64,000 bases of DNA from Escherichia virus TH35. Below, piece after piece: positions 1 through 17,759 of this stretch (positions are counted from its first letter, which is position 1; the number at the start of each line of letters is the position of its first letter). The notes under the pieces were generated by a model. The model did not search any database. It was not told the DNA's origin and saw only the letters and a program-made list of their open reading frames with translations. Made by a program: the position numbers and the translations under genes. Location: the sequence record MT446408.1; one strand, 5' to 3'.

Positions 1-160
1 TAGGCCAGAAGCTGCTGTTAATCTTTTTGCCGCGCTCGTCGGTCTGCACCGTTGCTTCAGGCGCAAACACGGTCATGACGCGTTCATCTTCTGGAATGCC
101 TCTTTGGAGTTCCGTCAAAAACTCTTCGATTATTTTTGCTTCTTCTCTTAAACTAGCCAT
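1..160 (-). CDS. hypothetical protein, partial (runs off window start)
   Basis: ATG at 160-158 on reverse strand preceded by GAAGGA RBS; open to position 1 (MASLREEAKIIEEF...); divergent from gene at 321. Confidence 0.4.
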   Translation of the reverse strand, partial: MASLREEAKIIEEFLTELQRGIPEDERVMTVFAPEATVQTDERGKKINSSFWP

Positions 161-320
161 CTTTCTTTCCTTCGGTGATCAATACCTGCAGTATAATATT
201 GAGTGATACAAAGTCAACAATATTTACCATTTAGTTCACAATTTCGATTTACTTTGCTTTATACTATATCTGCAATTATACTATCAGAAAATATTTCCGC
301 ACTAACAAAGGTCGCCTGAA

Positions 321-647
321 ATGAACGAAAAAGAGACGAAGCAACGCGAACGTGCAACACACGTCGGAATCGTTGAGTCCTTCCTTAATACAAGATTGAA
401 TTCAAGCCTGACAATCATGCGATTCCTGGGTCAACCAGACAGAATCAAATTTATTTTTGCCGCAAATCCGGTATCGCTGTACATCCCTGTTGAATCCATG
501 GCGTACTTAGTGCGCGACGAGAAAGGATGGAAGATACCAAACACAACTGTTTTCTTCAGCCATGTTGATGGTGAGATGTTTGAACGAAAAGAAGATTGCC
601 ATTTTATTCCAGTATATCTGGACCTTGAAAGCGTAGTGGAGTTATAA
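321..647 (+). CDS. hypothetical protein (108 aa)
   Basis: ORF with AAAGG RBS 9 nt upstream; TAATG stop/start overlap with downstream helicase. Confidence 0.55.
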   Translation: MNEKETKQRERATHVGIVESFLNTRLNSSLTIMRFLGQPDRIKFIFAANPVSLYIPVESMAYLVRDEKGWKIPNTTVFFSHVDGEMFERKEDCHFIPVYLDLESVVEL

Positions 648-1831
648 TGAACATTCCAGAATTTAATGATGAGCCAGTGATTCAGTTTAACGCGCAACAA
701 ATCGACGCCATCGAGAAAGCCGTTGCATGGTACAAGCGATTGCAGGACGGTAAAACGACGAAGCGCGTGTTTTTCATCGCTGGCTATGCAGGGACTGGTA
801 AAACCTCTATTGCTCGCGAGATTGTGCGCCGCTGTGTCGGTGAGTACGGCGCTATCTATATTGCGCCGACCGGAAAGGCTGCAAGCCGATTAAAGCAAAA
901 AGGCTGTCGTGGCGCTAAGACCCTTCACCAGTTCATCTATAACGTGCGCGGCGTAAATGACGACAATGAGCCAATCTTTTCGAGAAAGTCAAAGCTGGAT
1001 GAAAGGCCGCACCTTGTTGTACTCGATGAAGCGTCGATGGTTGGCGAGTGGGACACAGAGCGCCTTCTTGATCACCGCATCCCTGTCCTGGCATTAGGCG
1101 ACATTGGACAAGTCCCTCCGGTAAAAGCCGCCGCCTACTTTACTGAAGATGCCGTTGACGTACTGTTAACCGAAATCATGCGGCAAGGGAAAGAGTCCAA
1201 CATAATCCGCGCCTCCTTCTTCGTGCGCCAAGGCAACCGCCTTCCTCCGCGTGAATACGATGACGTCAAAGTATTGGCAGAATCGCCGCGCGTTACTGCA
1301 TTGAAGAAATTCATGGGCGAAGATGATCAAATTATTTGCTCCTATAATAGCACCAAAGATAAATGGAATTCATTATTACGGCAAGTGAGCGGACGTATAA
1401 CGCCAATGCCAGGAATCGGCGAGAAGGTTATTTGCACCTTCAACCAACACGGGCCAGGATTCTGTAATGGCGAGCAAGGGATTGTTATTAGCTATGAGCC
1501 AGTGCCGGACTTTGAAAGGGATGAAGACGAGTCGAATGAAATAATGTATGTCAACTTACGTTCATTAACTGATGGTAAAGATATAAAGGTGAAGATCAAT
1601 CCTCTTTCCTTCTCTACTGATCAGGAAGTGCGCAAAGAAGCGCAACGCGCTGTTGGTGGGATGGACTATGGCTATGTCATCACGGTGCACAAATCGCAAG
1701 GCAGCGAGTGGGACAATGTGTGCGTGCTGGAAGAAATCTTGCGCGGCGTTCCGTACTCCAAGATGATGTACACCGCTATCACCCGTGCTAAGAAGAATCT
1801 GACCGTGTACCGTGATTTGAAAGCGCGTTAA
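647..1831 (+). CDS. SF1 DNA helicase, Dda/RecD-like
   Basis: Walker A GYAGTGKT, Walker B VVLDEASM, C-terminal VITVHKSQGSEWDNV motif typical of RecD/Dda-type helicases. Confidence 0.85.
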   Translation: MNIPEFNDEPVIQFNAQQIDAIEKAVAWYKRLQDGKTTKRVFFIAGYAGTGKTSIAREIVRRCVGEYGAIYIAPTGKAASRLKQKGCRGAKTLHQFIYNVRGVNDDNEPIFSRKSKLDERPHLVVLDEASMVGEWDTERLLDHRIPVLALGDIGQVPPVKAAAYFTEDAVDVLLTEIMRQGKESNIIRASFFVRQGNRLPPREYDDVKVLAESPRVTALKKFMGEDDQIICSYNSTKDKWNSLLRQVSGRITPMPGIGEKVICTFNQHGPGFCNGEQGIVISYEPVPDFERDEDESNEIMYVNLRSLTDGKDIKVKINPLSFSTDQEVRKEAQRAVGGMDYGYVITVHKSQGSEWDNVCVLEEILRGVPYSKMMYTAITRAKKNLTVYRDLKAR

Positions 1832-1990
1832 TGTTGACGTAAATTTACGAAAAATAAAACTGAAAATCAGTTTAATTAAAGTGGCATTGCCGCCATAGTT
1901 TTTAGTTGCTACTGGCGGCGACTGAAGGCATAATTAAGTTATCCCAAACGGGGAATATAAAATAAACTAATTTATTTAAGGACTGTGAAT

Positions 1991-2830
1991 ATGGCCGAAG
2001 CAATCAAAGTATTATCTAAAGAAGAAAAACAAGCAGCCGCAGCAGAACGTCGTCGCGTGGCTGAAGAAAAACGCCTGGCTAAAAAGAAAGAAGCCGAAGA
2101 AAAACGCCAGAAGCGTGAGCAGGAAAAACAAGCCAAGCGTGAAGAAGCTGCGCTGAAACGCAAGCAGGCTGCTGATGAGAAGGCTCAGAAGCGTGCTGAA
2201 GAAGCAGCTAAGAAAGCTAAAGAGCGTGCAGAAAAGGCTGCTGCTAAGAAAGCAGAGCGTGAAGCCGCTAAAGCAGCAAAAGAAATCGAAAAGGCAAAGG
2301 CTAAAGAAGAAGCCAAGCGCCTGAAAGCTGAGCAGGCTGCGGCCAAGAAAGCAGAGCGTGATCAAGCCCGTGCTGCAGCGAAGGCCGAAAAAGAGAAGGC
2401 CAAAGAAGAAGCTAAAGCGAAACGCAAGGCAGAGCGTGAAGCTGCTAAGATTGCGGCGAAAGAAGCTGCAGAACAGCAGAAAGAACAGCGTAAGAAAGAA
2501 GCTGAAGAACGTCGCAAAGCCATCGCAGAACGTAAGGCTGCTAAAAAGGCAAACGGTCAGCGTCGTGCAAAAGCCACTCACTTCATCTACACTGGCAATG
2601 GCCTGAGCCAGCCGCAAGAGCATTCCACCCGTGGACGCGTTCTGGCGGCGATCAAAGAAGGCGAAGTTGGCGTGGCGCAGTCTATCGATGAGCTGGGCGA
2701 AAAAGTTAAAGATCAACTGTTTGGCGCTTCCGTTCGCTCCTACCTGAGCAAGCTGGAAGAGATGGGCCACATCGAGTTTGTCGATGTTGAATCCAACGAC
2801 GATGCCGAAGACGGTGATCAAGCGGAATAA
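1991..2830 (+). CDS. Lys/Ala/Glu-rich low-complexity charged protein with small acidic C-terminal domain
   Basis: ATG 1991 with AAGGA RBS (track start 1985 is GTG); about 200 aa of KAE repeats then HFIYTGNGL...DDAEDGDQAE; promoter-like TTGCTA-17-CATAAT upstream, terminator downstream. Confidence 0.65.
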   Translation: MAEAIKVLSKEEKQAAAAERRRVAEEKRLAKKKEAEEKRQKREQEKQAKREEAALKRKQAADEKAQKRAEEAAKKAKERAEKAAAKKAEREAAKAAKEIEKAKAKEEAKRLKAEQAAAKKAERDQARAAAKAEKEKAKEEAKAKRKAEREAAKIAAKEAAEQQKEQRKKEAEERRKAIAERKAAKKANGQRRAKATHFIYTGNGLSQPQEHSTRGRVLAAIKEGEVGVAQSIDELGEKVKDQLFGASVRSYLSKLEEMGHIEFVDVESNDDAEDGDQAE

Positions 2831-2856
2831 CCTGTAGGACGGTTATAGCGGTAATT

Positions 2857-2884
2857 GACCCACACTTGTTGTGGGTCTTTTTTT
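2857..2884 (+). terminator. rho-independent terminator
   Basis: hairpin GACCCACA-cttgtt-GTGGGTC followed by T7 run. Confidence 0.6.
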
Positions 2885-2969
2885 CGTCTGTACTAAATAG
2901 AAATGACTTGTTGCTGTAAAATAATTTAGCTATTATACTTCTCATATCACCCACAAAGGACAAATGAAC

Positions 2970-3959
2970 ATGAAACAACCTGTAATGATTATCGGCGGCG
3001 GTTTGGCAGGACTTATTACCGCGTGTCACTTCCCGAACTCCATTGTGTACGAAGCAGGGGAACGAGCGCCACAGCACAAGGCGCTGCTACGCTTTCGCGG
3101 CGAAGAAGTAAGCCGTATTACCGGAATCCCTTTTAAGGCCGTGACAGTCGATAAGGCTGTGTATTTTCGTGGTAACTACTATCACGACCACTGCCCGATT
3201 AACCTTGCCAACATGTACTCTATGAAAGTCACCAACCAGTTTGGCAGCCGCTCAATCATGAAGCTTCAAACCGCTACGCGCTACATAGCGCCGGATGACT
3301 TTTATGATCAACTTGTCGATAAGCTTGGCGACCGTATATTCTTCAATACTCCGGTCGACACCCTCTGCGGCTATAGCGAGACGCCAATCATCAATACATC
3401 GCCGCTGCCCGTCATGATGAAGCTTGCTGGCATTGATCAAAAGCTCGACTTCTCGTTTGATAAGGCAAATATACGCGTTTATCGTTTTAAGATTAAGCGC
3501 AAGTGTGAACTGTATCAAACAATTTACTTCCCTGACTATTCTGTAAGGACTTACCGCGCATCAATTACTGGTGACACGCTGATTATCGAAACAATTCCAT
3601 TGGTAAGCGTCAGCGCGGCAGCAGTTGAAGCCGCTGGCGGCATTACCCGTTATCGCGACATGAAGTTGCGTGCAGAAGTGGACGAAGTTCTGACCGCTTT
3701 TGGTCTTTCATGGAATGACATCTCTTTGGAAGAAGTTGAAAAGGTTGACCAGAAGTATGGCAAGATTGTCGACATTCCTAAAGACTTGCGCCACGCCTTA
3801 CTGCTCCAGCTGACTATGGATTTGAACGTGTTTAGTGTCGGTCGATTTGCTACATGGCGCAACATCTTGCTTGATGACGTAGCTCATGACCTTGTTGAAG
3901 TTGAAAAACTCATCAAAGCAAATAACTATCAAAAATTTGCTTATATTGCTAATAAATAA
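2970..3959 (+). CDS. FAD/NAD(P)-binding Rossmann-fold oxidoreductase
   Basis: N-terminal GxGxxG dinucleotide-binding motif VMIIGGGLAGL; start taken at second ATG (2970) for RBS spacing, track start 2964. Confidence 0.6.
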   Translation: MKQPVMIIGGGLAGLITACHFPNSIVYEAGERAPQHKALLRFRGEEVSRITGIPFKAVTVDKAVYFRGNYYHDHCPINLANMYSMKVTNQFGSRSIMKLQTATRYIAPDDFYDQLVDKLGDRIFFNTPVDTLCGYSETPIINTSPLPVMMKLAGIDQKLDFSFDKANIRVYRFKIKRKCELYQTIYFPDYSVRTYRASITGDTLIIETIPLVSVSAAAVEAAGGITRYRDMKLRAEVDEVLTAFGLSWNDISLEEVEKVDQKYGKIVDIPKDLRHALLLQLTMDLNVFSVGRFATWRNILLDDVAHDLVEVEKLIKANNYQKFAYIANK

Positions 3960-4004
3960 TTTGCTTTCTGCTTCAATGAGAGTATACTTTAATCATTGAA
4001 GCAG
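3960..4004 (+). promoter_or_regulatory. sigma70-like promoter with 12-bp inverted repeat bracketing the -10
   Basis: TTTGCT(3960-3965)-17 bp-TATACT(3983-3988); palindrome CTGCTTCAATGA 3968-3979 / TCATTGAAGCAG 3993-4004. Confidence 0.4.
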
Positions 4005-4025
4005 AACTCATAAGAGGAAATGAAG

Positions 4026-4472
4026 ATGAAACGCATCACTGGAATCGCGCTTGCCGCAACTGCTATTCTCGGAACCATGTATATGGAAGCGACTGAAGCC
4101 GCTGTCCGTACTTCCGATTCAATCGCTGTTTACGATTGCGAAGCGATGGACGGCAAGACCGCAGCGACGACTGGCGCAACAATTACCACTTACATCGGTG
4201 TGAACGAGCAAGAAGGTCTGAATATTCAGATTCAGGGATTCACCGGAAAAGGTGCCAACCGGACTCCGTGGATGCAGCGTTTCACTTTCGTTCAGCCTCG
4301 TTCAACTGGCGGCTTTATCAACCTGATTGGTGAAAACCGTTCTGGTGCAGAAATCTTTACATCAATTAGTTCTAATAATGAACCAAAGAAAAGTTTTCAG
4401 TTGCTTTATAACGCACAATTCGTTTATCATTGCACCTTCTCTGGTGATCAGCAACTAGTTAACTACCGTTAA
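4026..4472 (+). CDS. secreted/periplasmic protein of unknown function
   Basis: N-terminal signal peptide MKRITGIALAATAILG...ATEAA; AAGAGGA RBS 7 nt upstream of ATG 4026 (track start 4020). Confidence 0.6.
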   Translation: MKRITGIALAATAILGTMYMEATEAAVRTSDSIAVYDCEAMDGKTAATTGATITTYIGVNEQEGLNIQIQGFTGKGANRTPWMQRFTFVQPRSTGGFINLIGENRSGAEIFTSISSNNEPKKSFQLLYNAQFVYHCTFSGDQQLVNYR

Positions 4473-4485
4473 TAGGATAATTAAA

Positions 4486-5289
4486 ATGAAAGTTGAATTA
4501 ATTCGATACACCCAAGATGCACTTGACCTTTTGCTGGAAACAAAGAATACGCGCATGACTGGTAAGCCAGTCTCTGAGATGACAGAATCAGAGAAGCAAG
4601 AGCACTGGCGCTACATGCTTGACACCATCAAGTCACCTTTCGACTTTGTTGACTATATCTTTGACATCACTGATGTATCAAAGAATATGACTCATCAGAT
4701 GGTGCGCACACGAACAGGTGCATATCAAGAACGCACAAGCCGCGCTCAGGAGTCGTCAGCATTTGATGCGATTCGTCCTGCCAAATTTACTTACCCAGAG
4801 GATGATCCAAAGGGATGGACTCGTCATGACGAGAAGGCTGCTGAACTGGCAGAGAAATGGGATGATGCAATGGCAACCATTGACGCCCTATACCAAGAAC
4901 TTCGCGCGGCTGGCGCAGAGATTCAAGATGCACGTGCCGTGTTGCCTTCTAATATGCAAACGCATATCATGGCAAAGTTTAATTTGCGCACCCTGCAGCA
5001 AATGGCCTCTAACCGCTTGTGCACACGTACTCAAGGCGAGTATCAAGAAGTATTCCGTGCAATGGTTGCGGAAGTCCTTAAGGTGCACCCGTGGGCTAAT
5101 CCTTTACTACAGCCGCAGTGCATCGGTATGGGTAAGTGCGCATTCCCTCGTCACGGTAAGGCCCATTGCCCATGGTATCGTGATTGGATGGATACCACTG
5201 CACAGCAAGAAGAATTACGCATTCAGTTTTGGAATGCAATGCCAATCACCAATAATCCAGTGGCCAAAGATGGAGTATCAAAAGGATGA
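4486..5289 (+). CDS. thyX: flavin-dependent thymidylate synthase-like protein (ThyX family), non-canonical RTR motif
   Basis: ThyX-like blocks PFDFVDYIFDI, ARAVLPSNMQTHIMAKFNLRTLQQM and C-terminal HCPW; signature reads RTR-x7-T instead of RHR-x7-S. Confidence 0.7.
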   Translation: MKVELIRYTQDALDLLLETKNTRMTGKPVSEMTESEKQEHWRYMLDTIKSPFDFVDYIFDITDVSKNMTHQMVRTRTGAYQERTSRAQESSAFDAIRPAKFTYPEDDPKGWTRHDEKAAELAEKWDDAMATIDALYQELRAAGAEIQDARAVLPSNMQTHIMAKFNLRTLQQMASNRLCTRTQGEYQEVFRAMVAEVLKVHPWANPLLQPQCIGMGKCAFPRHGKAHCPWYRDWMDTTAQQEELRIQFWNAMPITNNPVAKDGVSKG

Positions 5290-6158
5290 GTATCAAAAAT
5301 AACCAAATCTTAAACGTATTCGACCTTGACGGAACTCTGTTTGATGACCGTTGGCGCTTAGACCGCATCAAGGTGGCAGGTCCGTTGTCAGACTATGATG
5401 ATTATCACAGCGGTATTGGTTATGATCAGTTCTATCCTCACATTGCATCAGCAGTAGAGTCGGCATCTCTTCGCGGTGAGGCGGTTGAATATTGGACTGC
5501 AAGGCCAGAAAAATACAGACAAGTGACTTTTGAACGTCTGGACAATGTTTTTCCTTTTGATGAATTTACAATCAAGATGAGAGACTATGGCGACAAACGT
5601 CCATCAACTATTATGAAATCTGCATGGCTATCGCACGCTTTGCGGCACGGCGATTATCGAATCATCAATGTATTCGACGACCGACAAGACGTACTCGCGC
5701 GGATGCAAGATGAAGCATTGTGTTATAATTCCGTTGCTCAAAATAAAATCGCTTTTACATTTAATCTTTGCAAGGCAGGTGAAGTGGTGCAACAATTAGC
5801 AATTGATCCAAGCGCAACAGGGCAAGAAGAGACTAAGTCTGTGGAAGTTGAACAATCTCCGGCAACTGCCGCCGATATTCTTGATGCAATGGCAGCAACC
5901 TTCCGTGAGCGCAACGCTGTCTATGGCGATAACGCTGTGATGGTAGGTCAGGTTATGCAAGTGCTTTTCCCTAATGGCGTGACGTTGAAAACGCCGGAAG
6001 ACTACCACATGTGGCATCTGTTCGAGCTTAAGATTGTCAAGCTTACACGCTTCGCAATCAGCGGCCTGAAGCACGAAGACTCTATACACGATGATGGTGT
6101 TTACAGCGCCATGTGTGAACGTCTTGTTAACACCCATAATATTAATTTCAATAAATAG
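5286..6158 (+). CDS. HAD-superfamily phosphatase with C-terminal domain of unknown function
   Basis: HAD motif I FDLDGTLFDD near N-terminus; ATGA overlap with thyX-like gene. Confidence 0.6.
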   Translation: MSIKNNQILNVFDLDGTLFDDRWRLDRIKVAGPLSDYDDYHSGIGYDQFYPHIASAVESASLRGEAVEYWTARPEKYRQVTFERLDNVFPFDEFTIKMRDYGDKRPSTIMKSAWLSHALRHGDYRIINVFDDRQDVLARMQDEALCYNSVAQNKIAFTFNLCKAGEVVQQLAIDPSATGQEETKSVEVEQSPATAADILDAMAATFRERNAVYGDNAVMVGQVMQVLFPNGVTLKTPEDYHMWHLFELKIVKLTRFAISGLKHEDSIHDDGVYSAMCERLVNTHNINFNK

Positions 6159-6202
6159 TTTACTTGTGCGTTTCGATGAGTTATCTTTATCTCATCGAAA
6201 CG
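6159..6202 (+). promoter_or_regulatory. sigma70-like promoter with perfect 12-bp inverted repeat bracketing the -10
   Basis: TTTACT(6159-6164)-17 bp-TATCTT(6182-6187); CGTTTCGATGAG 6169-6180 / CTCATCGAAACG 6191-6202; downstream CATCGAAACGAA shared with promoter at 13088. Confidence 0.4.
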
Positions 6203-6222
6203 AAGTCCAAAAGGATAAATAA

Positions 6223-6906
6223 ATGAAAAAAGTAATTGTTGTAACTGGCTGCAATTCCGGTCTTGGTAAATCCATTTTTGACACCCTTGGCGCTTACGGT
6301 CATGAAGTTGTCGGTATTGATTTGGAGAACGGCTATGACATCCGTAACGCGAAACAGATGAAAGAGCTTCTCTCTCAATACGACGTAGAAGGCTTGATCA
6401 ACTGCGCTGGCGTCAACTCCAACAACTGGTTCGAAGATGTTAACTACGAAGAGTTCAATCGCGTTATGCACACCAACGCCTTCTCTTTCGTCAACACGAC
6501 TCAGGCCGCGCTGAAAAGTCTTATTGACAACAAAGGTTTTGTGATCAACATCGTTTCCAACGCTGCGCATATTCCTATGACGTCCAGCTTGTGTTATAAT
6601 GCTTCCAAGGCTGCTGCGCTCATGATTAGCAAGCAGATGGCTCACGAGCTTACGCCTAAATACGGGATCACGGTGTTCTCTATTAGTCCTAACAAGCTAC
6701 GTGGTACTGGCATGTCCAAACAGATTGAAGATGCTGTTTGCGCGACTCGCGACTGGACTCCTGAGTATGCTGCTGAATACCAGAAAAAGGCGTTGATGAA
6801 TGGATTGGAGACTGAGCCGCAAGTAATTGCTGACTTCATTCGACATATCTTAATTACGGGCGCATGGCGCTTTATGTCTGGTACTGATATTCCATTTGGG
6901 AAATAA
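6223..6906 (+). CDS. short-chain dehydrogenase/reductase (SDR) family oxidoreductase
   Basis: TGxxxGxG cofactor motif VTGCNSGLGK, NCAG, catalytic YxxxK (YNASK). Confidence 0.7.
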   Translation: MKKVIVVTGCNSGLGKSIFDTLGAYGHEVVGIDLENGYDIRNAKQMKELLSQYDVEGLINCAGVNSNNWFEDVNYEEFNRVMHTNAFSFVNTTQAALKSLIDNKGFVINIVSNAAHIPMTSSLCYNASKAAALMISKQMAHELTPKYGITVFSISPNKLRGTGMSKQIEDAVCATRDWTPEYAAEYQKKALMNGLETEPQVIADFIRHILITGAWRFMSGTDIPFGK

Positions 6907-6909
6907 ATC

Positions 6910-7080
6910 ATGACTATCAAAGTTGTTGTAGAAGTGATTGGCGACTTGGCAGAAGTGAAGATTGATCAAGAAGGCGTTGGATTTGAAGTAATAAGAATCG
7001 AAAACGCAAAGATTAACCACGAGCGCGTCGGTTCCATTGAGACTTATTCCATAGAAGGCAACACAGTAATTAATCAATAA
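6910..7080 (+). CDS. small hypothetical protein (56 aa)
   Basis: ORF below track threshold found by reading the 6907-7100 gap; MTIKVVVEVIGDLAEV...; weak RBS. Confidence 0.35.
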   Translation: MTIKVVVEVIGDLAEVKIDQEGVGFEVIRIENAKINHERVGSIETYSIEGNTVINQ

Positions 7081-7100
7081 TATTTAATTAAGGAAACAAA

Positions 7101-7652
7101 ATGCCACATTTTAAAATTGAACAAATCGCCCTGTCAATTCCATGTGCTCAGCGCGCACAGAATTTCCTGGCTAAAATCGGCCTGACAGAATGGTTCCATG
7201 ATCACGTTGTTGCTACTGGTCGCGTATTTGAAGCTGATGTCTTTAAGGGTCAGCGCGGCGATTGCACCAACGAAGCTGACTTGCGCTTCAACTATCAGGC
7301 TGGCAACGGCACCGATGGCGGCGCTGGTAAGCCTCTTGAGCTTGAAATTCTTGACTATACAAAAGGTTGCAACTGGATTCACGAAAACATCGAATACATC
7401 GATGCGCACGACAATCAGGTTAGCCATCTTGGTATGCACGTGACTGCCGCTGAACTTGCTGAATGGCGTAAGTTCTTTAAAGAAGAAGGTATTCAGGTTG
7501 CACAGGAAGTTGTAACTGACTCTCATACCAACCCGAACATTGCTGGTCAACGTCGTTACAACTATGTGATCTTTGATACGCGTGAAATCATCGGCGTTGA
7601 TTTGAAGTTTATCGTGCGCTTGAATCAAGACGGTACTCCGTACACTGTATAA
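7101..7652 (+). CDS. putative VOC (glyoxalase/bleomycin-resistance/dioxygenase-like) family protein
   Basis: two beta-alpha-beta-like modules starting FKIEQIALSIP and SHLGMHVTAAEL; AAGGAAA RBS; assignment by fold-pattern only. Confidence 0.4.
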   Translation: MPHFKIEQIALSIPCAQRAQNFLAKIGLTEWFHDHVVATGRVFEADVFKGQRGDCTNEADLRFNYQAGNGTDGGAGKPLELEILDYTKGCNWIHENIEYIDAHDNQVSHLGMHVTAAELAEWRKFFKEEGIQVAQEVVTDSHTNPNIAGQRRYNYVIFDTREIIGVDLKFIVRLNQDGTPYTV

Positions 7653-7668
7653 CGAATCGTGAATCTGT

Positions 7669-7693
7669 GGCCGTCCTAATGGGCGGCCTTTTT
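7669..7693 (+). terminator. rho-independent terminator
   Basis: GGCCGTCC-taat-GGGCGGCC hairpin followed by TTTTT. Confidence 0.6.
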
Positions 7694-7706
7694 GTAGGAG
7701 GCTAAT

Positions 7707-8249
7707 GTGTTATTTCTCCCTTATGACTTCGAAACAACCGGATTGACCGTGCACCCGAAAGCGCCGCTTGGGATGCAGCCGCGCCCTATTGAATTTGCAG
7801 GTCTGTTGACAGACGGCAAAGAGATTCTTGAAACGTTTGAATTCATAATTAATCCTGAAATCGTGATTGAAGAAATTATCACAAAGATTACCGGATTAAC
7901 AAATGAAGACCTTGAGTGCAATCCACCATTCATCAATTTTGTCCCGCAGCTAAAAGAAATCTTCAAGAAGACGGATGCCACTATCGCGCACAACCATGCG
8001 TTCGATAAAAACATTCTTGATTATGCACTACAGCGCGAAGGACTTACGCTTGATGGTGTTAATTTTCCAGAAATAAACATTTGTACAGTTGAGCAAACCT
8101 TGCCTATTTTTGGCCGAAGAGTTAAGCTTCAAGAGCTGTATGAATTATATTTCGGAAAATATGAACAGAAACACCGTGCATTAGACGACGTAATATTACT
8201 GCACAAAGTCTGCCAACAAATTGGCGTATATGACATCTGGAGTAAATAA
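7707..8249 (+). CDS. DnaQ-like 3'-5' exonuclease (proofreading epsilon-like)
   Basis: Exo I motif DFETTGL, Exo III motif HRALDDV; GTG start with AGGAGG RBS; stop overlaps polymerase start. Confidence 0.75.
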   Translation: MLFLPYDFETTGLTVHPKAPLGMQPRPIEFAGLLTDGKEILETFEFIINPEIVIEEIITKITGLTNEDLECNPPFINFVPQLKEIFKKTDATIAHNHAFDKNILDYALQREGLTLDGVNFPEINICTVEQTLPIFGRRVKLQELYELYFGKYEQKHRALDDVILLHKVCQQIGVYDIWSK

Positions 8250-11146
8250 TGTTTCCACAATTGAGAGTTCGCAGCGGTTACACGTTCAAAGAAGTTTATG
8301 GACGGCATCCTGAAATTATAGCACGGCTCAAAGAGTTGGGCTGCGAAGTCGCGGCATTAGTTGATAACAACACATGGGGTCACGTTCGCTGGGAAAAGGA
8401 ATGCCAGAAAAATGATATTAAGCCTATGTTTGGGATGGAGATTCCAATCATCGACCCTGATGCGGACCCGAAAAAGGGATTCAAACCGAAGGCTTGGATA
8501 TTGGCCCTTGACTTGAAATCTTTTTACAATGCTACAACACTTGCAACGCAGCGCGGTGGACTTACCCGTTCAGAGTTCGGTGCGCTCGATGGCGTCGTTA
8601 AATTCTGTGGCGGTGCCGTGGAGTTGCTGCGGCCAGAGGACTACGACTATATAGACGTCAACCCATCATCGTTCCTTTTGGCAAAGCGCCAGGCATTGGC
8701 TCATCGTAGCAGTGGAAGGCCGCTGGTTTTAACCGGATACAATCACATGCCTTCACCTGAGCACGTTGACTTTGCTTATGCGTGGGAAGTGCGCGACACG
8801 GTTAAGCCGCATTGCATCGTTGACGTTGAAGACTTGCGCAAACAGCTTAAAGGCATCTTGACTGAAGATGAACTTGATCAGGCAACGGCCAATGCTGTGG
8901 ACATCGCAAACGGCATAGTCGGGCTTGACTTGAAATTGCGTAAGGCACCGATTATTCACCTTGCTGGTGACATGGTAAAGCTTGCTCGCGAGGGTATGGA
9001 GTACCGTCTAAAAGCAGGTCACATCAAAGAATGGACTCAGGAATACGAGGACCGCTTCAACGAAGAAATTCACCAGATTCAGCTGAAAGATTTCGACTCA
9101 TACTTTCTGGTGGTAGCGGACCTTGTACGATTCGCAAAAACAAAAATGCTCGTCGGTCCTGCGCGCGGCTCATCGGCTGGTTCACTTGTTTGCTATTGCC
9201 TCGGCATCACGGAAGTGGACCCAATCCCGTATAAGCTGCTGTTTGCCCGATTCATCGACGTAAGTCGCGCCGACCTTCCTGACATCGACATCGACTTTGA
9301 AGATACCAAACGCTATATGGTGTTTGATTATCTCAAAGAGAAATACGGCGAAATGAATGTTGCAAAGCTTGGCAACATCAACACGCTTAAGGCCAACTCA
9401 GTAATGGCGCAGGTTGGTAAGAAGTTCAACATTGGATACCACGAAACGGCCAACATTAAAAACGCACTGCTTGAATACTCATCCGGTGACGCCCGTTATG
9501 GTCACGGCCTGGAGGATACCTTTGCAACAACGACCACGGGCCAAGAGTTCGTGGCGAAATATCCTGACGCCGCGCGTTGCATGGGTGACCTTGAGATTCA
9601 CCCTTCCCACACAGGGGTGCACGCAGCGGGAATCATCGTGTGTAATGACCCAATCTCTGATTACTGTACTGTAACTGCGGAAGGGATTGCGCAAATCGAT
9701 AAGCCTGACAGCGAGTACCTTAACCTTTTGAAGCTTGATGCACTGGGCCTTCGTACTCTCGGCATTATTTCTGATACAGGCGTTATTGATGCTGAAACGC
9801 TCTACGGAATCAAGCTTGATGATCAAAGCGTACTTGACATTCTTAACGAAAACAAGATGTCAGGCATCTTCCAGTTTGAAGGTGACGCTGTACGCTCAGT
9901 AACAAACTTTGTGCACGTCGACAACTTTAACAAAATCGACAACCTGACAGCTTTGGGTCGACCTGGCCCGTTGTCATCCGGTATGGCCCAGAAATACATT
10001 GAACGCGCGGCAGGGCGTGCGCCGATTGAGTACGACGTGCCGCAGCTTGAGCCGTACTTGAAAGAGACTTACGGCGTGTTTCTTTACCAAGAGCAAATCA
10101 TGGCCGTGGTTAAAGAGATTGGTTCATTTGACTGGGCGAAAACGTCAGCTGTGCGTAAGGCGATGTCAGGCCGTAAGGGTGAAGAATACTTTAACAAGCT
10201 TGGCGAGGACTTTGTTGCAGGCGCAATCAATAACGGCGTACCGGAAGCGGATGCAAGAAAGCTTTGGCAAGCGATGGCCACGTTCGGGTCATGGGGCTTT
10301 AACAAGTCACACTCCGTGTCATACGCGGTCGTGACCTACTGGACCTTGTGGCTTAAGCGACACTACCCGTTGGAATTTGCCGCTGCCTGCTTACGCGCTG
10401 CTAAGGACGAAGACCAGACGATTGCGATATTACGTGAACTAGCGAAGGAAGGCGTGGATTATGTGCCAATCGACCCTGATCACTCTTCGATGAACTGGAC
10501 CATCGCGAACGGAAAGCTAATCGGCGGCATCATGAACGCGAAAGGATACGGAATGGTGAAGGCGATGAAGTATATCGAAGCGCGTGAAGCCGGAACCTTA
10601 ACGCAAAAGCAAAAGGACGCATTGGCCAATGCTGAAGTCAAATACGGCGACCTTACAGAGATGCACACAAAGTTCGGCTGGGCGTATAATGACCCGTATC
10701 TGATTGGTGTGACGTCCGGCGCTTCAATACGCCAGATGAAGGAAGTCGGTGATGACGAGCGTGCAATAGTAATCGGCAAGTTGACAAAGAAAGTGCTTGC
10801 AGACGAGAACGAAGCGACACGCATCCGTAAACGACTTGAGCGCGGCATCTATACAAAGCACGGCAAGCTTAAAAAAGGTCTTCAAGCTGATGGCCGCTAC
10901 GCAGAGTTTGACCAGTACGGAAACAAGCTTGAGACTCAGTTCATCGACCTTATGTGCAAAGACGACTCGACCGACTCGCCAATGCGCTTCAGGATTCGTC
11001 CAGAAAAGTTCCAGAAGTACGGGAAATACATTGCTGAAAACGTCGGGAACGGCGCATTCTTCCTGATGAAAGGTCGCAAGCTTGAAGGCATTGACATGTT
11101 CATAGTCGACGTTATCAAACAGGTGTATCCAGATGGCAACAAATAA
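8249..11146 (+). CDS. dnaE: DnaE-type (Pol III alpha-like, family C) DNA polymerase
   Basis: motif GPARGSSAGSLVCYCLGITEVDPIPYKLLFARFIDVSRADLPDIDIDFE matching the Pol III alpha active-site region; 965 aa. Confidence 0.85.
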   Translation: MFPQLRVRSGYTFKEVYGRHPEIIARLKELGCEVAALVDNNTWGHVRWEKECQKNDIKPMFGMEIPIIDPDADPKKGFKPKAWILALDLKSFYNATTLATQRGGLTRSEFGALDGVVKFCGGAVELLRPEDYDYIDVNPSSFLLAKRQALAHRSSGRPLVLTGYNHMPSPEHVDFAYAWEVRDTVKPHCIVDVEDLRKQLKGILTEDELDQATANAVDIANGIVGLDLKLRKAPIIHLAGDMVKLAREGMEYRLKAGHIKEWTQEYEDRFNEEIHQIQLKDFDSYFLVVADLVRFAKTKMLVGPARGSSAGSLVCYCLGITEVDPIPYKLLFARFIDVSRADLPDIDIDFEDTKRYMVFDYLKEKYGEMNVAKLGNINTLKANSVMAQVGKKFNIGYHETANIKNALLEYSSGDARYGHGLEDTFATTTTGQEFVAKYPDAARCMGDLEIHPSHTGVHAAGIIVCNDPISDYCTVTAEGIAQIDKPDSEYLNLLKLDALGLRTLGIISDTGVIDAETLYGIKLDDQSVLDILNENKMSGIFQFEGDAVRSVTNFVHVDNFNKIDNLTALGRPGPLSSGMAQKYIERAAGRAPIEYDVPQLEPYLKETYGVFLYQEQIMAVVKEIGSFDWAKTSAVRKAMSGRKGEEYFNKLGEDFVAGAINNGVPEADARKLWQAMATFGSWGFNKSHSVSYAVVTYWTLWLKRHYPLEFAAACLRAAKDEDQTIAILRELAKEGVDYVPIDPDHSSMNWTIANGKLIGGIMNAKGYGMVKAMKYIEAREAGTLTQKQKDALANAEVKYGDLTEMHTKFGWAYNDPYLIGVTSGASIRQMKEVGDDERAIVIGKLTKKVLADENEATRIRKRLERGIYTKHGKLKKGLQADGRYAEFDQYGNKLETQFIDLMCKDDSTDSPMRFRIRPEKFQKYGKYIAENVGNGAFFLMKGRKLEGIDMFIVDVIKQVYPDGNK

Positions 11147-11555
11147 CCGTGAGCAGAAATACATATTCGTGCCTTTAAAGAAGCATTCAGAGTCAGTATT
11201 GAAGCTTCAACGAATCGAGTCGATGACTGGTGATGGCGTGCCGGACGTAATCGGCACCAACCGGAAAGGGCGCGGCTTTTGGCTTGAAATGAAGTTCTTT
11301 GAATCGTGGCCTGCAAGGGCCACCACTGCACCTTTCAGAAATGCATTTGAGAAAGGTCAATGCAGCTTTCTTTCTTCGTGGAATGATTGGAAATACCCAT
11401 CATTTGTTCTGCTTAAGGTTGATTCTGAGAAGATGTTTTATTTAGTCCACCCTTCTATTGAATTAAAGCGTTATAATACTGCAGACGTTCAACGTGAGAT
11501 AATCGTGAAGGGAACTATTCATCACATCATCAAGTATTTAGAGGAATTGTCGTGA
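11133..11555 (+). CDS. VRR-NUC domain nuclease (PD-(D/E)xK)
   Basis: GDGVPDVIG...GRGFWLEMK matches VRR-NUC D...E-x-K core; overlaps polymerase end and SNF2 start. Confidence 0.6.
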   Translation: MATNNREQKYIFVPLKKHSESVLKLQRIESMTGDGVPDVIGTNRKGRGFWLEMKFFESWPARATTAPFRNAFEKGQCSFLSSWNDWKYPSFVLLKVDSEKMFYLVHPSIELKRYNTADVQREIIVKGTIHHIIKYLEELS

Positions 11556-13075
11556 AAACACAAGGAATGCGCCACCAATTATTGGCGCTTGATAAAGCAG
11601 GCCGCAGAAAATACTTTGCTTATTTCATGGAGCAGGGTCTTGGCAAAACCTGGACCGCTTTGGCAGAGTTTGAAAAGCATTTTACCGCTGGCGCATTTGA
11701 TGCCATGGTTGTAATCGCTCCTAACGGTGTACACTCAAACTGGATTCGTCGTGAAGCACCAGAGCACCTTTCCATTAAATGGATTGGTCATTACTGGCGC
11801 GGCAATGACAAAATGAAAACTAAAAAGGGCAAGGCGCTTTGGGAGAAGATGTTTGCTGATCACTATCCTGAAGGCGAAGTGCCTGCACGAATCTTCTCAT
11901 TCAACATTGACACGGTGAACACGCCAGTCGGTTATCAACACATTGAGTCCGTACTGAAGAAGTACCGCTGTTTGATGATCATTGATGAATCGACGCGTAT
12001 CAAAAATAACACAGCCAAACGCTCCATCAAGGTTGTGGAATTGGGACGGCTGGCAAAGGCCCGTCGAATCCTTTCCGGTACGCCGCTGCCGCGCTCGCCT
12101 GCTGATATTTACATGCAGTATCACTTCCTTGAAGCTGGCTTGCTTGGCACAAAATCGTTCCGTGCATTCAACTCTGAATTTACAGTCCTGCTTGAAGCGC
12201 ACGACCCAGAGATGCAGGCCATTCTCAAGAAAATCGGCGGCAACGGTTATGGCATTCCGCAAGTGCCGCGCAAAGACCATTTTGGCCGACCGATGTACAA
12301 AAACCTTGACAAGCTTATCCGGCTGATGGAACCGCACTATTTTCGTGCGACAAAAGCGGAATACTTGCCGGACCTTCCAGAGAAGGTGTACAAGTTTATT
12401 GACTTCGAGTTGTCGCCTAAACAACGCGATGTTTACGATGAACTCAAGAATGAGTACAACTATCTGATGGAGTACAAAGGCGAAGAAGAAAACGTTAAGT
12501 TTGAGATGATCGCATCTCGCACTAAGATGAAGCAGGTGACATCAGGCTTTGTTAAGGTGTATGATGAGATGGTCTACATGGAAGACAACCCACGATTCAC
12601 GGCCTTTAAGGACTATGTGGAAGGGGTGCTGGAAGACGACCCAGAGCGCAAATTCATTGTTTGGGCCATCTTTAAGGAAGAGATGAACCAGATTAAGGAC
12701 TGGCTTGAGTCTGAAGGCGTGGTCACTGGTGTATATAACGGTGAAACATCAAAAGAGCAGCGCGAGTTCTTGATTGATGACTTCCAGAAGAACACAGTTG
12801 AGAACGGTGGAACGCAAGTCTTAGTTTGTCACGCTGCAGCGGCAGGCATCGGAATCACGCTTACCGCCGCCGACTTGGCAATCTATTATTCTTGCAACTA
12901 TGACAACGAGTTGCGCAAGCAATCCGAAGACCGAAATCACCGCATCGGCACCAAATCAAGCGTGTTGTATGTTGATTTTATTGGGGTTGATACCATCGAC
13001 GAAGAAATTCAGCGTTCATTGAGTATGAAGTCTATGCTTGCTGATCACATCCTCGACGGCAAAAAGATGAATTAA
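11552..13075 (+). CDS. SNF2-family DNA helicase/translocase
   Basis: Walker A QGLGKT, DExx box IIDESTRIK, LSGTP motif, C-terminal helicase domain; GTG start with GAGGA RBS. Confidence 0.8.
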   Translation: MKTQGMRHQLLALDKAGRRKYFAYFMEQGLGKTWTALAEFEKHFTAGAFDAMVVIAPNGVHSNWIRREAPEHLSIKWIGHYWRGNDKMKTKKGKALWEKMFADHYPEGEVPARIFSFNIDTVNTPVGYQHIESVLKKYRCLMIIDESTRIKNNTAKRSIKVVELGRLAKARRILSGTPLPRSPADIYMQYHFLEAGLLGTKSFRAFNSEFTVLLEAHDPEMQAILKKIGGNGYGIPQVPRKDHFGRPMYKNLDKLIRLMEPHYFRATKAEYLPDLPEKVYKFIDFELSPKQRDVYDELKNEYNYLMEYKGEEENVKFEMIASRTKMKQVTSGFVKVYDEMVYMEDNPRFTAFKDYVEGVLEDDPERKFIVWAIFKEEMNQIKDWLESEGVVTGVYNGETSKEQREFLIDDFQKNTVENGGTQVLVCHAAAAGIGITLTAADLAIYYSCNYDNELRKQSEDRNHRIGTKSSVLYVDFIGVDTIDEEIQRSLSMKSMLADHILDGKKMN

Positions 13076-13087
13076 TATCAAAAATAA

Positions 13088-13133
13088 TTTGACTTGTCAC
13101 GGAAGATGAGTCATAATTACTTCATCGAAACGA
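13088..13133 (+). promoter_or_regulatory. sigma70-like promoter plus conserved leader
   Basis: TTGACT(13088-13093)-17 bp-CATAAT(13111-13116) then CATCGAAACGAA (13122-13133) as at 6191. Confidence 0.45.
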
Positions 13134-13149
13134 AACAGAGGAATACAAA

Positions 13150-13413
13150 ATGGTACGCATCCTTGAACGTTACAAAAATGAAGCTACTGGCGCAATCGCT
13201 TTCAAACGTCTTTTGGTCAAAGAAATTGACGGAATGTTTCGCATTGTTAAAGAGTTTGATTATGGCAACGGTGCTGGGGTGAATACCGTTATCATGCCTG
13301 GCATCAAGGCGTATAAAACCTTAAAAGGCGCTGAGAAGGCTTTGTCGGCTTGGAAACCTGAACGTTATCAAATGACCCGTGTTGAAGGGCTAATGCAAGA
13401 AGGTAAAATATGA
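13150..13413 (+). CDS. hypothetical protein (87 aa)
   Basis: ORF after promoter at 13088; ATGA overlap with next gene. Confidence 0.5.
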   Translation: MVRILERYKNEATGAIAFKRLLVKEIDGMFRIVKEFDYGNGAGVNTVIMPGIKAYKTLKGAEKALSAWKPERYQMTRVEGLMQEGKI

Positions 13414-13967
13414 GCAATATTAATTGGGAAGATGATTTGCCGCAGGTCGCTCCTGAGAGCATTCAAGAGCGCCTTGCGCGCTTAGTATCTGAATTGGCAG
13501 AACGCCAAGAAGCTTTGACAGAGCTTGAAGATGAAGCTGATATGCAAAAGCAGCGCATCAGTGAAATCAAGACTGTTTTACTTCCTGGCGTCATGGATGA
13601 GCTTGGCGTGTCTGAAATCAAGCTTGAAGACAAGACCAAAATCAAGGTCGAGTCGAAAGTGAATGCTTCAATCAAGAAAGAAAACGAATTAAAAGTTTTC
13701 GATTGGCTTGTCAACAACGGTTACGGCGGCCTGATCAAGTCCAGCGTCACGGCTGAGTTCGGTCGCGAAGAAATCGAACAGGCGCAAGAGATTGTTGCCG
13801 CGCTGCGTGAAGATGGTGTTGAAGCAACGTTGAAACAAGGCGTTCATTCTGCTACACTGAAGTCATTTGTAAAAGAACAACTGGAAGCGGGCAATCCAGT
13901 TAGTGAAGATATTAGCGTTTTTGAATACAAAGAAGCTAAAATAACCTTGCCTAAAAGCAAAAAGTAA
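13410..13967 (+). CDS. hypothetical protein with N-terminal coiled coil
   Basis: 185-aa acidic protein in the replication/recombination module; no motif recognised. Confidence 0.5.
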   Translation: MSNINWEDDLPQVAPESIQERLARLVSELAERQEALTELEDEADMQKQRISEIKTVLLPGVMDELGVSEIKLEDKTKIKVESKVNASIKKENELKVFDWLVNNGYGGLIKSSVTAEFGREEIEQAQEIVAALREDGVEATLKQGVHSATLKSFVKEQLEAGNPVSEDISVFEYKEAKITLPKSKK

Positions 13968-14026
13968 TTTAACCTTTATCTTGAAATCAGGTTGCCACGA
14001 AACTTGATACTATAGGAAAATATCAA

Positions 14027-14887
14027 ATGTCTAAGAAAGAAACTACCGAAGTTGCAGTGAAAAACACCCAGATGTCCGCTATGGCTGATTTTGTCGACAT
14101 GACCGATTTTGGCGCTGGTTTTGAAGGTGCCGATGCCGATGCGTATGCCATTCCTTTTATCGTCGTACTGCAGAAGATGTCTCCTATGGTCGACGAAGAT
14201 GATCCAAAACACGTTCCTGGCGCAAAAGCTGGCATGCTTTACAACACCGTTACTGGTGAGTTGTATGACGGCAAGAAAGGCGTGCAGATCATCCCTTGCG
14301 CATTCAAACGCACCTTCATCCTTTGGGGCGGTCGCGAGTCCGACGATAAAGGCTTTAAAGGTGAATTCACCAAAGAGCACGTTGATGCAGAAGTAGCGGC
14401 AGGCCGCGCTGTTGAGATCAACGGTAAAGTGTTTGTGCCGGACGAAAACGGCAAAGTGCACGAGAAGAAATCGCCTTACTACGCAGATACACGTAACCAC
14501 TTCGTAATTCTGTTGAACGAAGAAACTGGTGAATTTGGTAGCGCAATGTTGTCTTTGACTTCTTCGATGATCAAGCCGTCTCGCATGCTGATGACCGCGC
14601 TGCAGCAGAAGAAAGTTCAGACTCCGCAAGGTCTGAAAACGCCGCCGACCTTTATGAACATCGTTCGCATGGGTACTGCATCCCAGTCCAAAGACGGGAA
14701 CACCTGGTCTGTTCTGAAGTTTGAGTTGGAAGGTCTGGTGCAGGACAAAGGTCTGTATGAAGTCGCCAAAGCATTCCACAACGATGTAGTTGGCGGCAAC
14801 GTTAACATTGACCGCAGCAAGCAGGAAGAAGCAAGCGGTGCCGCTGGCCCTGTTAATGAAACTCCGACCGACGCAGAAGAGTTTTAA
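14027..14887 (+). CDS. hypothetical protein; possible ssDNA-binding/annealing protein
   Basis: 286 aa ending in acidic tail ...ETPTDAEEF (terminal Phe) reminiscent of phage SSB C-termini; function inferred only. Confidence 0.45.
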   Translation: MSKKETTEVAVKNTQMSAMADFVDMTDFGAGFEGADADAYAIPFIVVLQKMSPMVDEDDPKHVPGAKAGMLYNTVTGELYDGKKGVQIIPCAFKRTFILWGGRESDDKGFKGEFTKEHVDAEVAAGRAVEINGKVFVPDENGKVHEKKSPYYADTRNHFVILLNEETGEFGSAMLSLTSSMIKPSRMLMTALQQKKVQTPQGLKTPPTFMNIVRMGTASQSKDGNTWSVLKFELEGLVQDKGLYEVAKAFHNDVVGGNVNIDRSKQEEASGAAGPVNETPTDAEEF

Positions 14888-14905
14888 TCGACAATCAAAT
14901 CAACA

Positions 14906-14930
14906 AGGCTGCCGATTGGCGGCCTTTTAT
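14906..14930 (+). terminator. rho-independent terminator
   Basis: AGGCTGCC-gatt-GGCGGCCT stem (one G-U pair) followed by TTTT. Confidence 0.5.
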
Positions 14931-14944
14931 TTATCTGGTGCATC

Positions 14945-15463: not shown

Positions 15464-16053
15464 AACAGATTTATGCAAACATTCGCCAGTGGGCTTCTGA
15501 CCGTAACATCATCCAAGGTTGCGACCTTAAGGACCAATACCCGAAGCTTATCAGCGAGTTTGGGGAGTTAACCGACCACGTTGATCAACTCCATGACCTT
15601 GTGTTCTTTGACCATGAAATTGAATATACAGAGCAGGCCATCTGTGACCTGCAGGCCGCAATCAAGGACGACATTGGTGATTGTCTTGTTGTATTGACTA
15701 TCCTTGCCGCGCAAAATGGTGCAAAAATCGAAGACATCAACGGCGGCGGTTGCGCTGACAAAGGTGCCCACCCTCACTCGTTTATCCTTCGCTTGGCAAA
15801 GACTCTCGGACGGCTTGGTGACGCCATTGCTAAAAATCAGAGCATGGATATTGATGTCACCATCATGGTCGCAGTCGATTACCTTTCCGGCGTAGCTCAT
15901 GATTATGGCCTTCGCTTATCCGACTGTGCGCAAGCGGCCTACGAAGACATCAAGGACCGCAAAGGTGTCATGTACAACGGCACGTTTATCAAATCGACTG
16001 ATCAGGCTTACGCCTATGCGCTGGAACAAGTAATGAATGAGGGGAAAGAGTGA
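15460..16053 (+). CDS. MazG-like nucleotide pyrophosphohydrolase (putative)
   Basis: all-alpha NTP-PPase-like motifs KLISEFGELTDHV and DIGDCLVVLTILA. Confidence 0.5.
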   Translation: MKQIYANIRQWASDRNIIQGCDLKDQYPKLISEFGELTDHVDQLHDLVFFDHEIEYTEQAICDLQAAIKDDIGDCLVVLTILAAQNGAKIEDINGGGCADKGAHPHSFILRLAKTLGRLGDAIAKNQSMDIDVTIMVAVDYLSGVAHDYGLRLSDCAQAAYEDIKDRKGVMYNGTFIKSTDQAYAYALEQVMNEGKE

Positions 16054-17745: not shown

Positions 17746-17759
17746 CATGGGTGGTAGTT

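Follow-up and report, generated by a model that had tools for sequence, protein, structure and literature searches.

Predicted promoters and inverted repeats in the replication gene cluster

The DNA analyzed here (hereafter the window) comprises 64,000 nucleotides (nt) of Escherichia virus TH35 (record MT446408.1). Its subject is a set of intergenic junctions, termed S1, S2, S3 and P1906, at which a predicted sigma70-type promoter and a stem-loop share the same bases. The window is ∼92-97% identical to Escherichia phages FEC19, WFH, WFC, ECML-117 and other Wifcevirus genomes (∼68 kb), and its sequence places it in the genus Wifcevirus as a FEC19/WFH-like coliphage. The genus is assigned in one record to the Lindbergviridae, the family of the PB1-like phages, and nucleotide searches with the window also matched PB1-like Pseudomonas phages, Serratia MTx/MyoSmar, Pantoea Kyle and Xanthomonas XcP1.

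Positions 321-17972 form a single rightward cluster of replication and nucleotide metabolism genes (RecD/Dda-like helicase, ThyX, polynucleotide kinase/phosphatase, FabG-like dehydrogenase, DnaE and exonuclease, SNF2 helicase). Sites S1, S2 and S3, with promoters at 3960, 6159 and 13089, fill the whole of the intergenic gaps 3960-4019, 6159-6222 and 13076-13149 of this cluster, and P1906 is a fourth site. The GenBank records of WFH and WFC have terminators annotated and no promoters at these sites. The features, with Shine-Dalgarno (SD) sequences and open reading frames (ORFs), are as follows.

3945-3965, plus strand: S1 A/T-rich upstream region (aataaataa) and -35, overlapping the stop codon of the upstream gene (3957-3959)
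3960-3965, plus strand: S1 -35 hexamer TTTGCT
3966-3979, plus strand: S1 left (5') arm TTCTGCTTCAATGA, inside the 17-nt spacer
3983-3988, plus strand: S1 -10 hexamer TATACT, in the hairpin loop
3993-4006, plus strand: S1 right (3') arm TCATTGAAGCAGAA, containing the predicted start A3995
4013-4018, plus strand: S1 SD AGAGGA; start codon at 4026
6159-6164, plus strand: S2 -35 hexamer TTTACT, immediately 3' of the polynucleotide kinase/phosphatase stop codon (6156-6158)
6169-6183, plus strand: S2 left arm CGTTTCGATGAG(TTA)
6182-6187, plus strand: S2 -10 hexamer TATCTT (TATATT in 13 other Wifceviruses)
6188-6204, plus strand: S2 right arm (TAT)CTCATCGAAACG and conserved leader CATCGAAACGAA; predicted start A6194
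6210-6214, plus strand: S2 SD AAGGA; ATG at 6223 (short-chain dehydrogenase, FabG-like)
13089-13117, plus strand: S3 promoter, -35 TTGACT (13089-13094) and -10 CATAAT (13112-13117)
13090-13098 and 13105-13113, plus strand: S3 hairpin, TGACTTGTC paired with GATGAGTCA (9 bp, 2 G.U, loop ACGGAA)
13123-13134, plus strand: S3 leader CATCGAAACGAA; predicted start A13124
13137-13142, plus strand: S3 SD AGAGGA; ATG at 13150 (87-aa lineage-specific ORF)
1898-1934, plus strand: P1906 promoter-in-hairpin, -35 TTGCTA (1906-1911), spacer N17, -10 CATAAT (1929-1934)
1898-1910 and 1917-1929, plus strand: P1906 stem (13 bp, 5 G.U)

The promoter of S1 reads TTTGCT-N17-TATACT, and its inverted repeat is perfect over 14 bp (3966-3979/3993-4006), where a first-pass annotation of the window had given 12 bp. 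S2 (TTTACT-N17-TATCTT) carries the perfect 12-bp repeat described in that annotation (6169-6180/6191-6202), which extends to 15 bp when one mismatch is allowed. Three promoters with a repeat bracketing the -10 hexamer had been proposed. This design is present at S1 and S2, but at S3 the bracketing repeat (GATGA/TCATC) is 5 bp only, and the conserved hairpin joins the -35 region to sequence abutting the -10 (z-score about -2). The -35 hexamers had also been listed in the wrong order relative to their coordinates: TTTGCT belongs to S1, TTTACT to S2 and TTGACT to S3. The three sites have their upstream region, -35 type and leader in common. The 12-mer said to be shared by two of them is indeed exact at 6193-6204 (S2) and 13123-13134 (S3); when mismatches were allowed, no additional promoter copies of CATCGAAACGAA were found within the window. 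The S1 upstream region (3945-3965) is unchanged in 14 Wifcevirus genomes save one base in phage kaset, and an ATG at 4020 is exclusive to this genome when compared with its Wifcevirus relatives.

Structured sites were also found beyond these three. The P1906 hairpin (1898-1929) has a folding free energy (dG) of -20.7 kcal/mol (z -3.8), and a terminator-like hairpin (1881-1893) precedes it. This makes four embedded promoter/hairpin cases (1906, S1, S2 and S3), all in the replication cluster. A further structured site is a minus-strand element at 25189-25243.

Excess over chance and compensatory changes in the stems

The window has three loci (3966, 6169 and 39673) at which a hairpin repeat is perfect over 12 bp or more and its loop does not exceed 20 nt, against ∼0.03 expected per window from Markov shuffles. 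The RNA folding energies of the S1 and S2 gaps were -21.8 and -22.2 kcal/mol, with z-scores of -4.2 and -5.9 in one computation and -4.9 and -5.6 in another. Fortuitous inverted repeats in A/T-rich intergenic DNA would account for the 5-bp bracket of S3 and for many repeats picked out by eye in promoters of Pseudomonas phage 14-1, which are not significant. The excess of three observed repeats over ∼0.03 expected, the z-scores of -4 to -6 and the covariation described below nevertheless leave chance with a negligible probability, and effectively refute it for S1, S2 and the S3 stem between -35 and spacer. The repeats and their excess over chance are thus established.

A spacer ending in ATGAG, which the first-pass annotation took as a shared feature, did not hold up. 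The ATGAG of S1 is private to this genome (ATGGG in the 13 other Wifceviruses), and a search of the window for ATGAG-N(8-16)-CTCAT matched at S2 only, with 0.76 matches expected by chance, so that the motif is not recurrent.

When S1 and S2 were aligned on ATGA/TCAT, 3 of 11 stem pairs differed, and all three differences were compensatory double changes (A3975-T3997/G6175-C6196, C3971-G4001/T6171-A6200 and T3969-A4003/C6169-G6202). For S3, a MAFFT alignment of 12 lineages, anchored on the -35 and -10 and ungapped save for a single 1-nt gap (L026; labels of this kind denote loci or lineages), was analyzed, together with a nine-sequence version. The helicase is 48-56% identical to that of the window in nine viral relatives and ∼50-54% in three metagenome loci. 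In the 12 lineages, 94.4% of the S3 stem cells were paired, against 75% after column shuffles and 30-49% in slid registers, and both sides had changed in six of the nine pairs (16 cells). The usual form is TTGCCG...CGGCA; the window has TTGACT...AGTCA instead, with two compensatory changes within the -35 hexamer.

Stems of unrelated sequence occupy these syntenic junctions in L006/L007, L008, L024, L026, L039, L009, L048, L075, L058, L061 and L067, again in one of two geometries (around the -10, as at S1 and S2, or from the -35 region to the -10, as at S3). Examples of hairpins from relatives are:

Serratia MTx/MyoSmar: ATGGCGCT-atta-AGCGCCAT and GGCCA-agga-TGGCC
L008: outer stem of 10 bp around GATAAT
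L024: 14 bp around CATAAT
L039: AGTGCGC-ttataat-GGGCGCACT
L009: GGGTTACGG-cataatt-GCTGTAACCC
L075: stem of 14-17 bp around the -10

Over shorter distances (14 Wifcevirus genomes compared with blastn/MAFFT), the cassettes are near-invariant and vary in their loops, and flanking coding DNA shows ∼1 difference per 8 nt. Three stem substitutions were found. Two of them give sense-strand G.U pairs, at 3979 (A in this genome, G in 13 relatives) and at 6201 (C>T in Bas101, which preserves the pairing), and one, at 1918, breaks a pair in one genome. These comparisons indicate that the hairpins are selected, with stems kept by compensatory change across the phage family.

Sense-strand bias of the hairpins

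When 23 hairpins, selected by eye and phylogenetically related, were folded on both strands, 15 were stabler as sense RNA and seven as antisense RNA, with a mean sense advantage of 1.9 kcal/mol. G.U pairs numbered 22 on the sense and five on the antisense strand (Wilcoxon p = 0.016), which establishes a sense-strand bias in this set. For P1906 the values were -14.2 (sense) and -2.3 kcal/mol (antisense). A cUUCGg tetraloop closes the stem in L024/L058/L067. The sense-strand stability, the G.U excess and the cUUCGg loop favour a function in sense read-through RNA.

The same data bear on a role at the level of DNA, in which a cruciform or a single-stranded DNA hairpin would influence promoter melting or have a part in replication or recombination. 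Supercoil-dependent cruciform promoters and the hairpin promoters of phage N4 are precedents, and the -10 in the S1/S2 loop would be single-stranded in such a structure. A recombination role of the stem has been speculated for comparable elements of T4-like phages (PMC2839356). However, the 22 vs. five G.U pairs and the sense advantage are unexpected for a symmetric cruciform, cUUCGg is an RNA stability motif, and the geometry of S3 and 1906 buries the -35 in the stem, which would destroy the promoter. We consider a DNA-level role unlikely.

Start sites mapped in the related phage 14-1

Transcription starts of Pseudomonas phage 14-1 have been determined by ONT-cappable-seq (Putzeys et al., 2024, PMC10914365; bioRxiv 10.1101/2023.10.13.562163, Table S3). 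Its promoter P025 is identical in sequence to the equivalent of S3 that follows the SNF2-helicase orthologue in the PB1-like loci L029/L030/L049. P028 is the S1-equivalent, and its mapped start is the A of TCA directly followed by TCGAAACG. The same leader stands at the start of P001 and P009, and a variant (A followed by TTGAAACG) at that of P006; P001 was active in reporters in E. coli as well as in P. aeruginosa (PMC10914365). The class can be written as -35 TTTACT/TTGNNN, 17 nt, -10, 4 nt, then TCA and TCGAAACG. Because the 14-1 orthologues have mapped starts, the promoter class is anchored by experiment in a relative, with promoter activity and starts established in orthologues. The promoter reading of the first-pass annotation is supported in this way, and for S1, S2 and S3 we predict promoters with starts at A3995, A6194 and A13124.

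Two of these starts (A3995 and A6194) fall within the 3' arm and the third (A13124) beyond it, so that the promoter's own RNA would be without the 5' arm and only read-through RNA could fold. RNA from the predicted start is essentially unstructured (-2.0, -3.5 and 0 kcal/mol for S1, S2 and S3). The earlier suggestion of a hairpin in the transcript is thus retained for read-through RNA from upstream, but not for locally initiated RNA, from which the 5' arm is absent.

The leader forms an observation of its own. The segment AUCGAAACG(A/C)GAA starts exactly at the mapped 14-1 start in P001, P009 and P028, with the variant AUUGAAACG in P006 (L052/L053 being 14-1), and recurs at promoters of the Lindbergviridae lineages L008, L024, L030 and L048. 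Promoter escape, translation or stability are candidate roles.

The first-pass annotation had read the palindrome as a possible repressor operator. A dimeric phage or host repressor bound to a palindrome centred on the -10 would shut the promoters off, and a palindrome over the -10 lies in the classical operator position. The inner palindrome TTCRATGA...TCATYGAA is common to S1, S2 and L024-S1, and S3 has its right half. That conserved right half, however, coincides with the mapped transcript start and leader, and the spacing of the ATGA-TCAT core varies (13, 12, 12 and 17 nt). The outer arms are wholly different yet complementary, the differences between S1 and S2 being all compensatory, and orthologous sites elsewhere carry unrelated stems. 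At S3 the conserved pairing joins the -35 with the spacer, with no palindrome on the -10. G.U pairs are tolerated, with a preference for the sense strand. An operator is therefore very unlikely in our view.

A proposed boundary hairpin in read-through RNA

The best explanation, which we hold to be moderately probable, is that these sites are composite promoter/stem-loop junctions whose hairpin serves as a 3'-boundary element for the upstream RNA. At S1, S2, S3 and P1906, an A/T-rich region, a host sigma70-type promoter, a stem-loop and a ribosome-binding site (RBS) would be packed into 60-150 nt between co-directional genes. As DNA, the junction would act as a promoter, with a start, by orthology, at the A of TCA followed by TYGAA, ∼7 nt past the -10. 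Local initiation would yield an unstructured leader (AUCGAAACGAA at S2 and S3, AUUGAAGCAGAA at S1), and in read-through RNA the stop codon of the upstream gene would be followed directly by a stable hairpin. The arms appear to be placed in the sequence-free parts of the promoter. In the first geometry (S1 and S2), spacer and start region would provide the arms and the hairpin would bracket the -10; in the second (S3 and 1906), the -35 and the distal spacer would serve as arms and the hairpin would abut the -10. On read-through RNA the hairpin could attenuate or weakly terminate transcription, block 3' exonucleases, or do both, and would insulate successive transcription units where intergenic space is almost nil. 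For the hairpins we infer this boundary function at the level of RNA.

A survey of 17 candidate intergenic promoters in the window bears on this proposal. Divergent promoters all had z about 0. Predicted internal promoters with an intergenic gap after a co-directional gene each had a hairpin, either embedded (1906, S1, S2 and S3) or as a canonical terminator just upstream (2857, 17100 and 50575). Two predicted co-directional promoters lie outside the pattern: P29307, located in the coding sequence upstream and lacking a hairpin (z -0.28), and P53227, an ambiguous case (z -0.50). Since a hairpin stands beside every such gap promoter, the embedded stems can be read as a compressed terminator-promoter tandem. 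The spaced tandems of the window (2857/2912, 17100/17144 and 50575/50599) and of 14-1 (T004/P009) likewise follow a co-directional gene, with a presumed logic of ending one unit and starting the next; they differ from S1-S3, where hairpin and promoter interdigitate and the U-tract is missing.

At 50575-50630, a hairpin (GGCGC-tgaaaa-GCGCC) is followed by a T-tract, TTTACTTT, that doubles as the -35 of TTTACT-N16-TATACT. This is another mode of terminator/promoter overlap, and 14-1 T004/P009 is similar.

Several results weigh against a boundary function. No U-tract follows the S1 and S2 hairpins, and only the A/U-mixed -10 follows S3-type stems. None of the 14 called 14-1 transcript ends (Table S4) lies at the P025 or P028 junction, so that efficient termination is unsupported for the 14-1 orthologues. 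The 25 mapped sigma70 promoters of 14-1 showed no excess structure (mean z -0.19 vs. -0.07 for random windows, Mann-Whitney p = 0.37), and a hairpin is absent from the S1 orthologue of 14-1 (z +1.0); the promoter/hairpin architecture is site-specific and can be lost. The promoter evidence comes from the 14-1 orthologues, with Wifcevirus starts placed by orthology, and the lineages in the covariation sets were partly picked by eye.

The 14-1 comparison also led us to reject the idea that all sigma70 promoters of the phage family are hairpin-embedded. Because the 14-1 promoter class shows no excess structure, the small repeats spotted by eye in the 14-1 table are attributed to chance. A canonical intrinsic terminator was ruled out for S1-S3 by the missing U-tract and by a terminator scan in which their stems were not listed (tails CTCATAAG, AAGTCCAA and TAATTACT). 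A scan of positions 1-20000 with Rfam covariance models gave no match at E<=1. As RNase III sites, the stems (8-14 bp) would be shorter than typical substrates.

The hairpin might also act on the downstream gene. In T4, the late promoters of genes e, soc, 49 and I-TevI are enclosed by inhibitory hairpins (Uzan and Miller, 2010, PMC3014915), and for gene e a difference of ∼100-fold between the long and short leaders has been reported there. By analogy, a read-through hairpin would silence the downstream gene and only RNA from the internal promoter would be translated. As in T4, the start lies inside the hairpin, so that folding is confined to RNA initiated upstream. Just 6-8 nt separate the end of the S1 and S2 stems from the SD, and the element at 25.2 kb described below fits this scheme (SD..AUG unpaired 0.02 vs. 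0.62, conserved family-wide). However, the RBS is outside the stem at S1-S3, S3-type stems end ∼30 nt upstream of the start codon, and the promoters are of sigma70 type, in contrast to the late (gp55) promoters of T4. Predicted SD..AUG accessibility was alike in the long and short isoforms (0.58/0.57 at S1, 0.72/0.74 at S2, 0.56/0.56 at S3 and 0.42/0.38 at P1906). RBS sequestration at S1-S3 and 1906 was rejected because the computed accessibility is the same in both isoforms, and isoform-specific translation is an improbable account of these sites.

Comparison with the stem-loop cassettes of T4-like phages

Promoter-early stem-loop (PeSL) cassettes have been described in the T4-like phages RB49/phi1, T4/PST and KVP40/nt-1 (Arbiol et al., 2010, PMC2839356; Comeau et al., 2014, PMC4122927). 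As in the window, they have an A/T-rich region 5' of sigma70-like -35 and -10 hexamers 17 nt apart (for the T4/PST set, TTTACW...TAYWAT), and an SD and start codon at the 3' end. Their stem-loop lies between the -35 and -10, as at S3 and 1906, or overlaps the -10, as at S1 and S2, so that the same two geometries recur. ORFans are often adjacent to PeSLs, and here S1 and S3 precede lineage-specific ORFs. In a lacZ test the PeSL stem-loop lowered read-through (PMC2839356), and since the stem-loops are analogous, this is the strongest external support for the boundary function that we propose.

There are also differences. PeSLs occur as dozens of copies in hyperplastic regions of T4-like phages, whereas four copies lie in one gene cluster of a member of the Lindbergviridae (Wifcevirus/PB1-like) here. 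The G-run/C-run stem motifs of PeSLs are not used in the window stems. PeSLs appear as recently shuffled repeats, in contrast to orthologous junctions with deep covariation. The PeSL stem-loop is described as a terminator or attenuator of upstream transcription; the window stems lack a U-tract, and none of the termination sites called in 14-1 falls at the orthologues. PeSLs are described as mediating insertion, deletion or replacement between close relatives, and no evidence of breakpoints or mini-circles was found here. By analogy, PeSLs appear to be the nearest mechanistic match to the window junctions, which would represent a novel variant in a further phage family. Our literature search found PeSLs in T4-like phages only, and in the PB1-like/Wifcevirus literature we found no such elements described, earlier papers giving only unexplained conserved intergenic motifs.

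The likeness to PeSLs raises the question of whether the elements are kept as homology patches for gene shuffling, the hairpin having no role in expression. S1 and S3 are each followed by a lineage-specific ORFan where the junction is otherwise syntenic, the segment TTTCGATGAG...CTCATCGAAACGAA found at S2 in Wifcevirus stands at the S1 junction in L024 and L008, and a divergent FabG allele block (WFC, ECML-117) begins at 6246, directly 3' of S2. Homology patches, however, need no intramolecular complementarity, yet the pairing is conserved, and in the 14 Wifceviruses no indel or replacement breakpoint falls inside a cassette. A recombination cassette is thus quite unlikely.

Around 5250-6250 the window is a mosaic of ancestries, WFC-like at 4000-5250 and FEC19-like at 5500-6750. 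An indel hot spot at 6907-7100, after the FabG-like gene, holds zero, one or two different small ORFs (171-216 nt) across Wifceviruses, and is without flanking promoter/hairpin cassettes.

A predicted promoter within a hairpin at 25.2 kb

A related arrangement lies in the structural-gene cluster:

25189-25243, minus strand: promoter element TTGCTT (25243-25238)-N17-TATAAT (25220-25215)

A perfect 14-bp repeat (25237-25224/25202-25189) surrounds the -10. The SD (AAGGAG) is in the 3' arm, which abuts the ATG (25190/25187) of a baseplate-spike-like gene. Read-through RNA has a predicted dG of -26.7 kcal/mol (z -5.4), and predicted SD..AUG accessibility is 0.02 in the long isoform and 0.62 in RNA from the predicted start. 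The orthologous 14-1 junction (gp41/gp42, baseplate spike) has a mapped, reporter-validated promoter, P018, with an analogous stem. The geometry recurs with unrelated stems in ∼20 lineages, with a mean z of -1.9 (25 junctions) and SD..AUG 66% paired on average. On these folding predictions, the element follows the logic of T4 genes e, soc, 49 and I-TevI (PMC3014915) with a sigma70-type promoter. A promoter inside a hairpin would then be used in the phage family in at least two functional grades.

A broader proposal, possible but clearly more tentative than the boundary reading of S1-S3 and 1906, is that a sigma70 promoter within an RNA hairpin is an ancient dual-coded device of the Lindbergviridae (Wifcevirus, Pbunavirus and relatives). 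The junctions would discriminate read-through from local RNA, bases would be selected both as hexamers and as arms, and the -35 would co-evolve with its partner. The two grades would be a boundary/stability hairpin (S1-S3 and 1906) and a full switch by RBS sequestration at the junction of the baseplate spike (25.2 kb; 14-1 P018). If true, this would extend the PeSL concept and the T4 gene e paradigm to host-sigma70 promoters of an unrelated phage family. Confirmation would mean that (i) interdigitated promoter/stem-loop junctions are recurrent in compact virulent phages and not a T4-like peculiarity; (ii) a promoter hexamer can be constrained by RNA structure at the same time, as the covarying -35 cleanly exemplifies; and (iii) such elements are missed by annotation that relies on U-tract terminators and hexamer-only promoters. 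The cassettes (∼60 bp) are candidate self-insulating expression parts, and are relevant to the reading of long-read phage transcriptomes (14-1) and to the engineering of therapeutic Wifcevirus/Pbunavirus phages.

Other structured regions

Inverted repeats are also present in the 'phage promoters' of the siphovirus YuA (for example GGGGC-TTTACTTCTTCGGA-GCCCC-ACTATACT), where they surround the -35 and spacer (bioRxiv 10.1101/2023.10.13.562163, Table S3). YuA being an unrelated phage, promoter-in-hairpin designs may be more widespread than the Lindbergviridae.

The third perfect hairpin repeat of the window (39673-39685/39696-39708) lies within 39660-39880. Here the iteron-like 9-mer GATACGGAT recurs in direct and inverted orientation on both sides of a segment at 39780-39840 that is very rich in A/T, and from its sequence the region looks like an origin or packaging site. 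The region 53190-53700 has, distributed over both strands, three paralogues of a strong promoter-like site (GTGCTTTACTT...TATAAT/TATACT) with a conserved downstream segment (tatatcgagaSggg...), and is probably the early control region.

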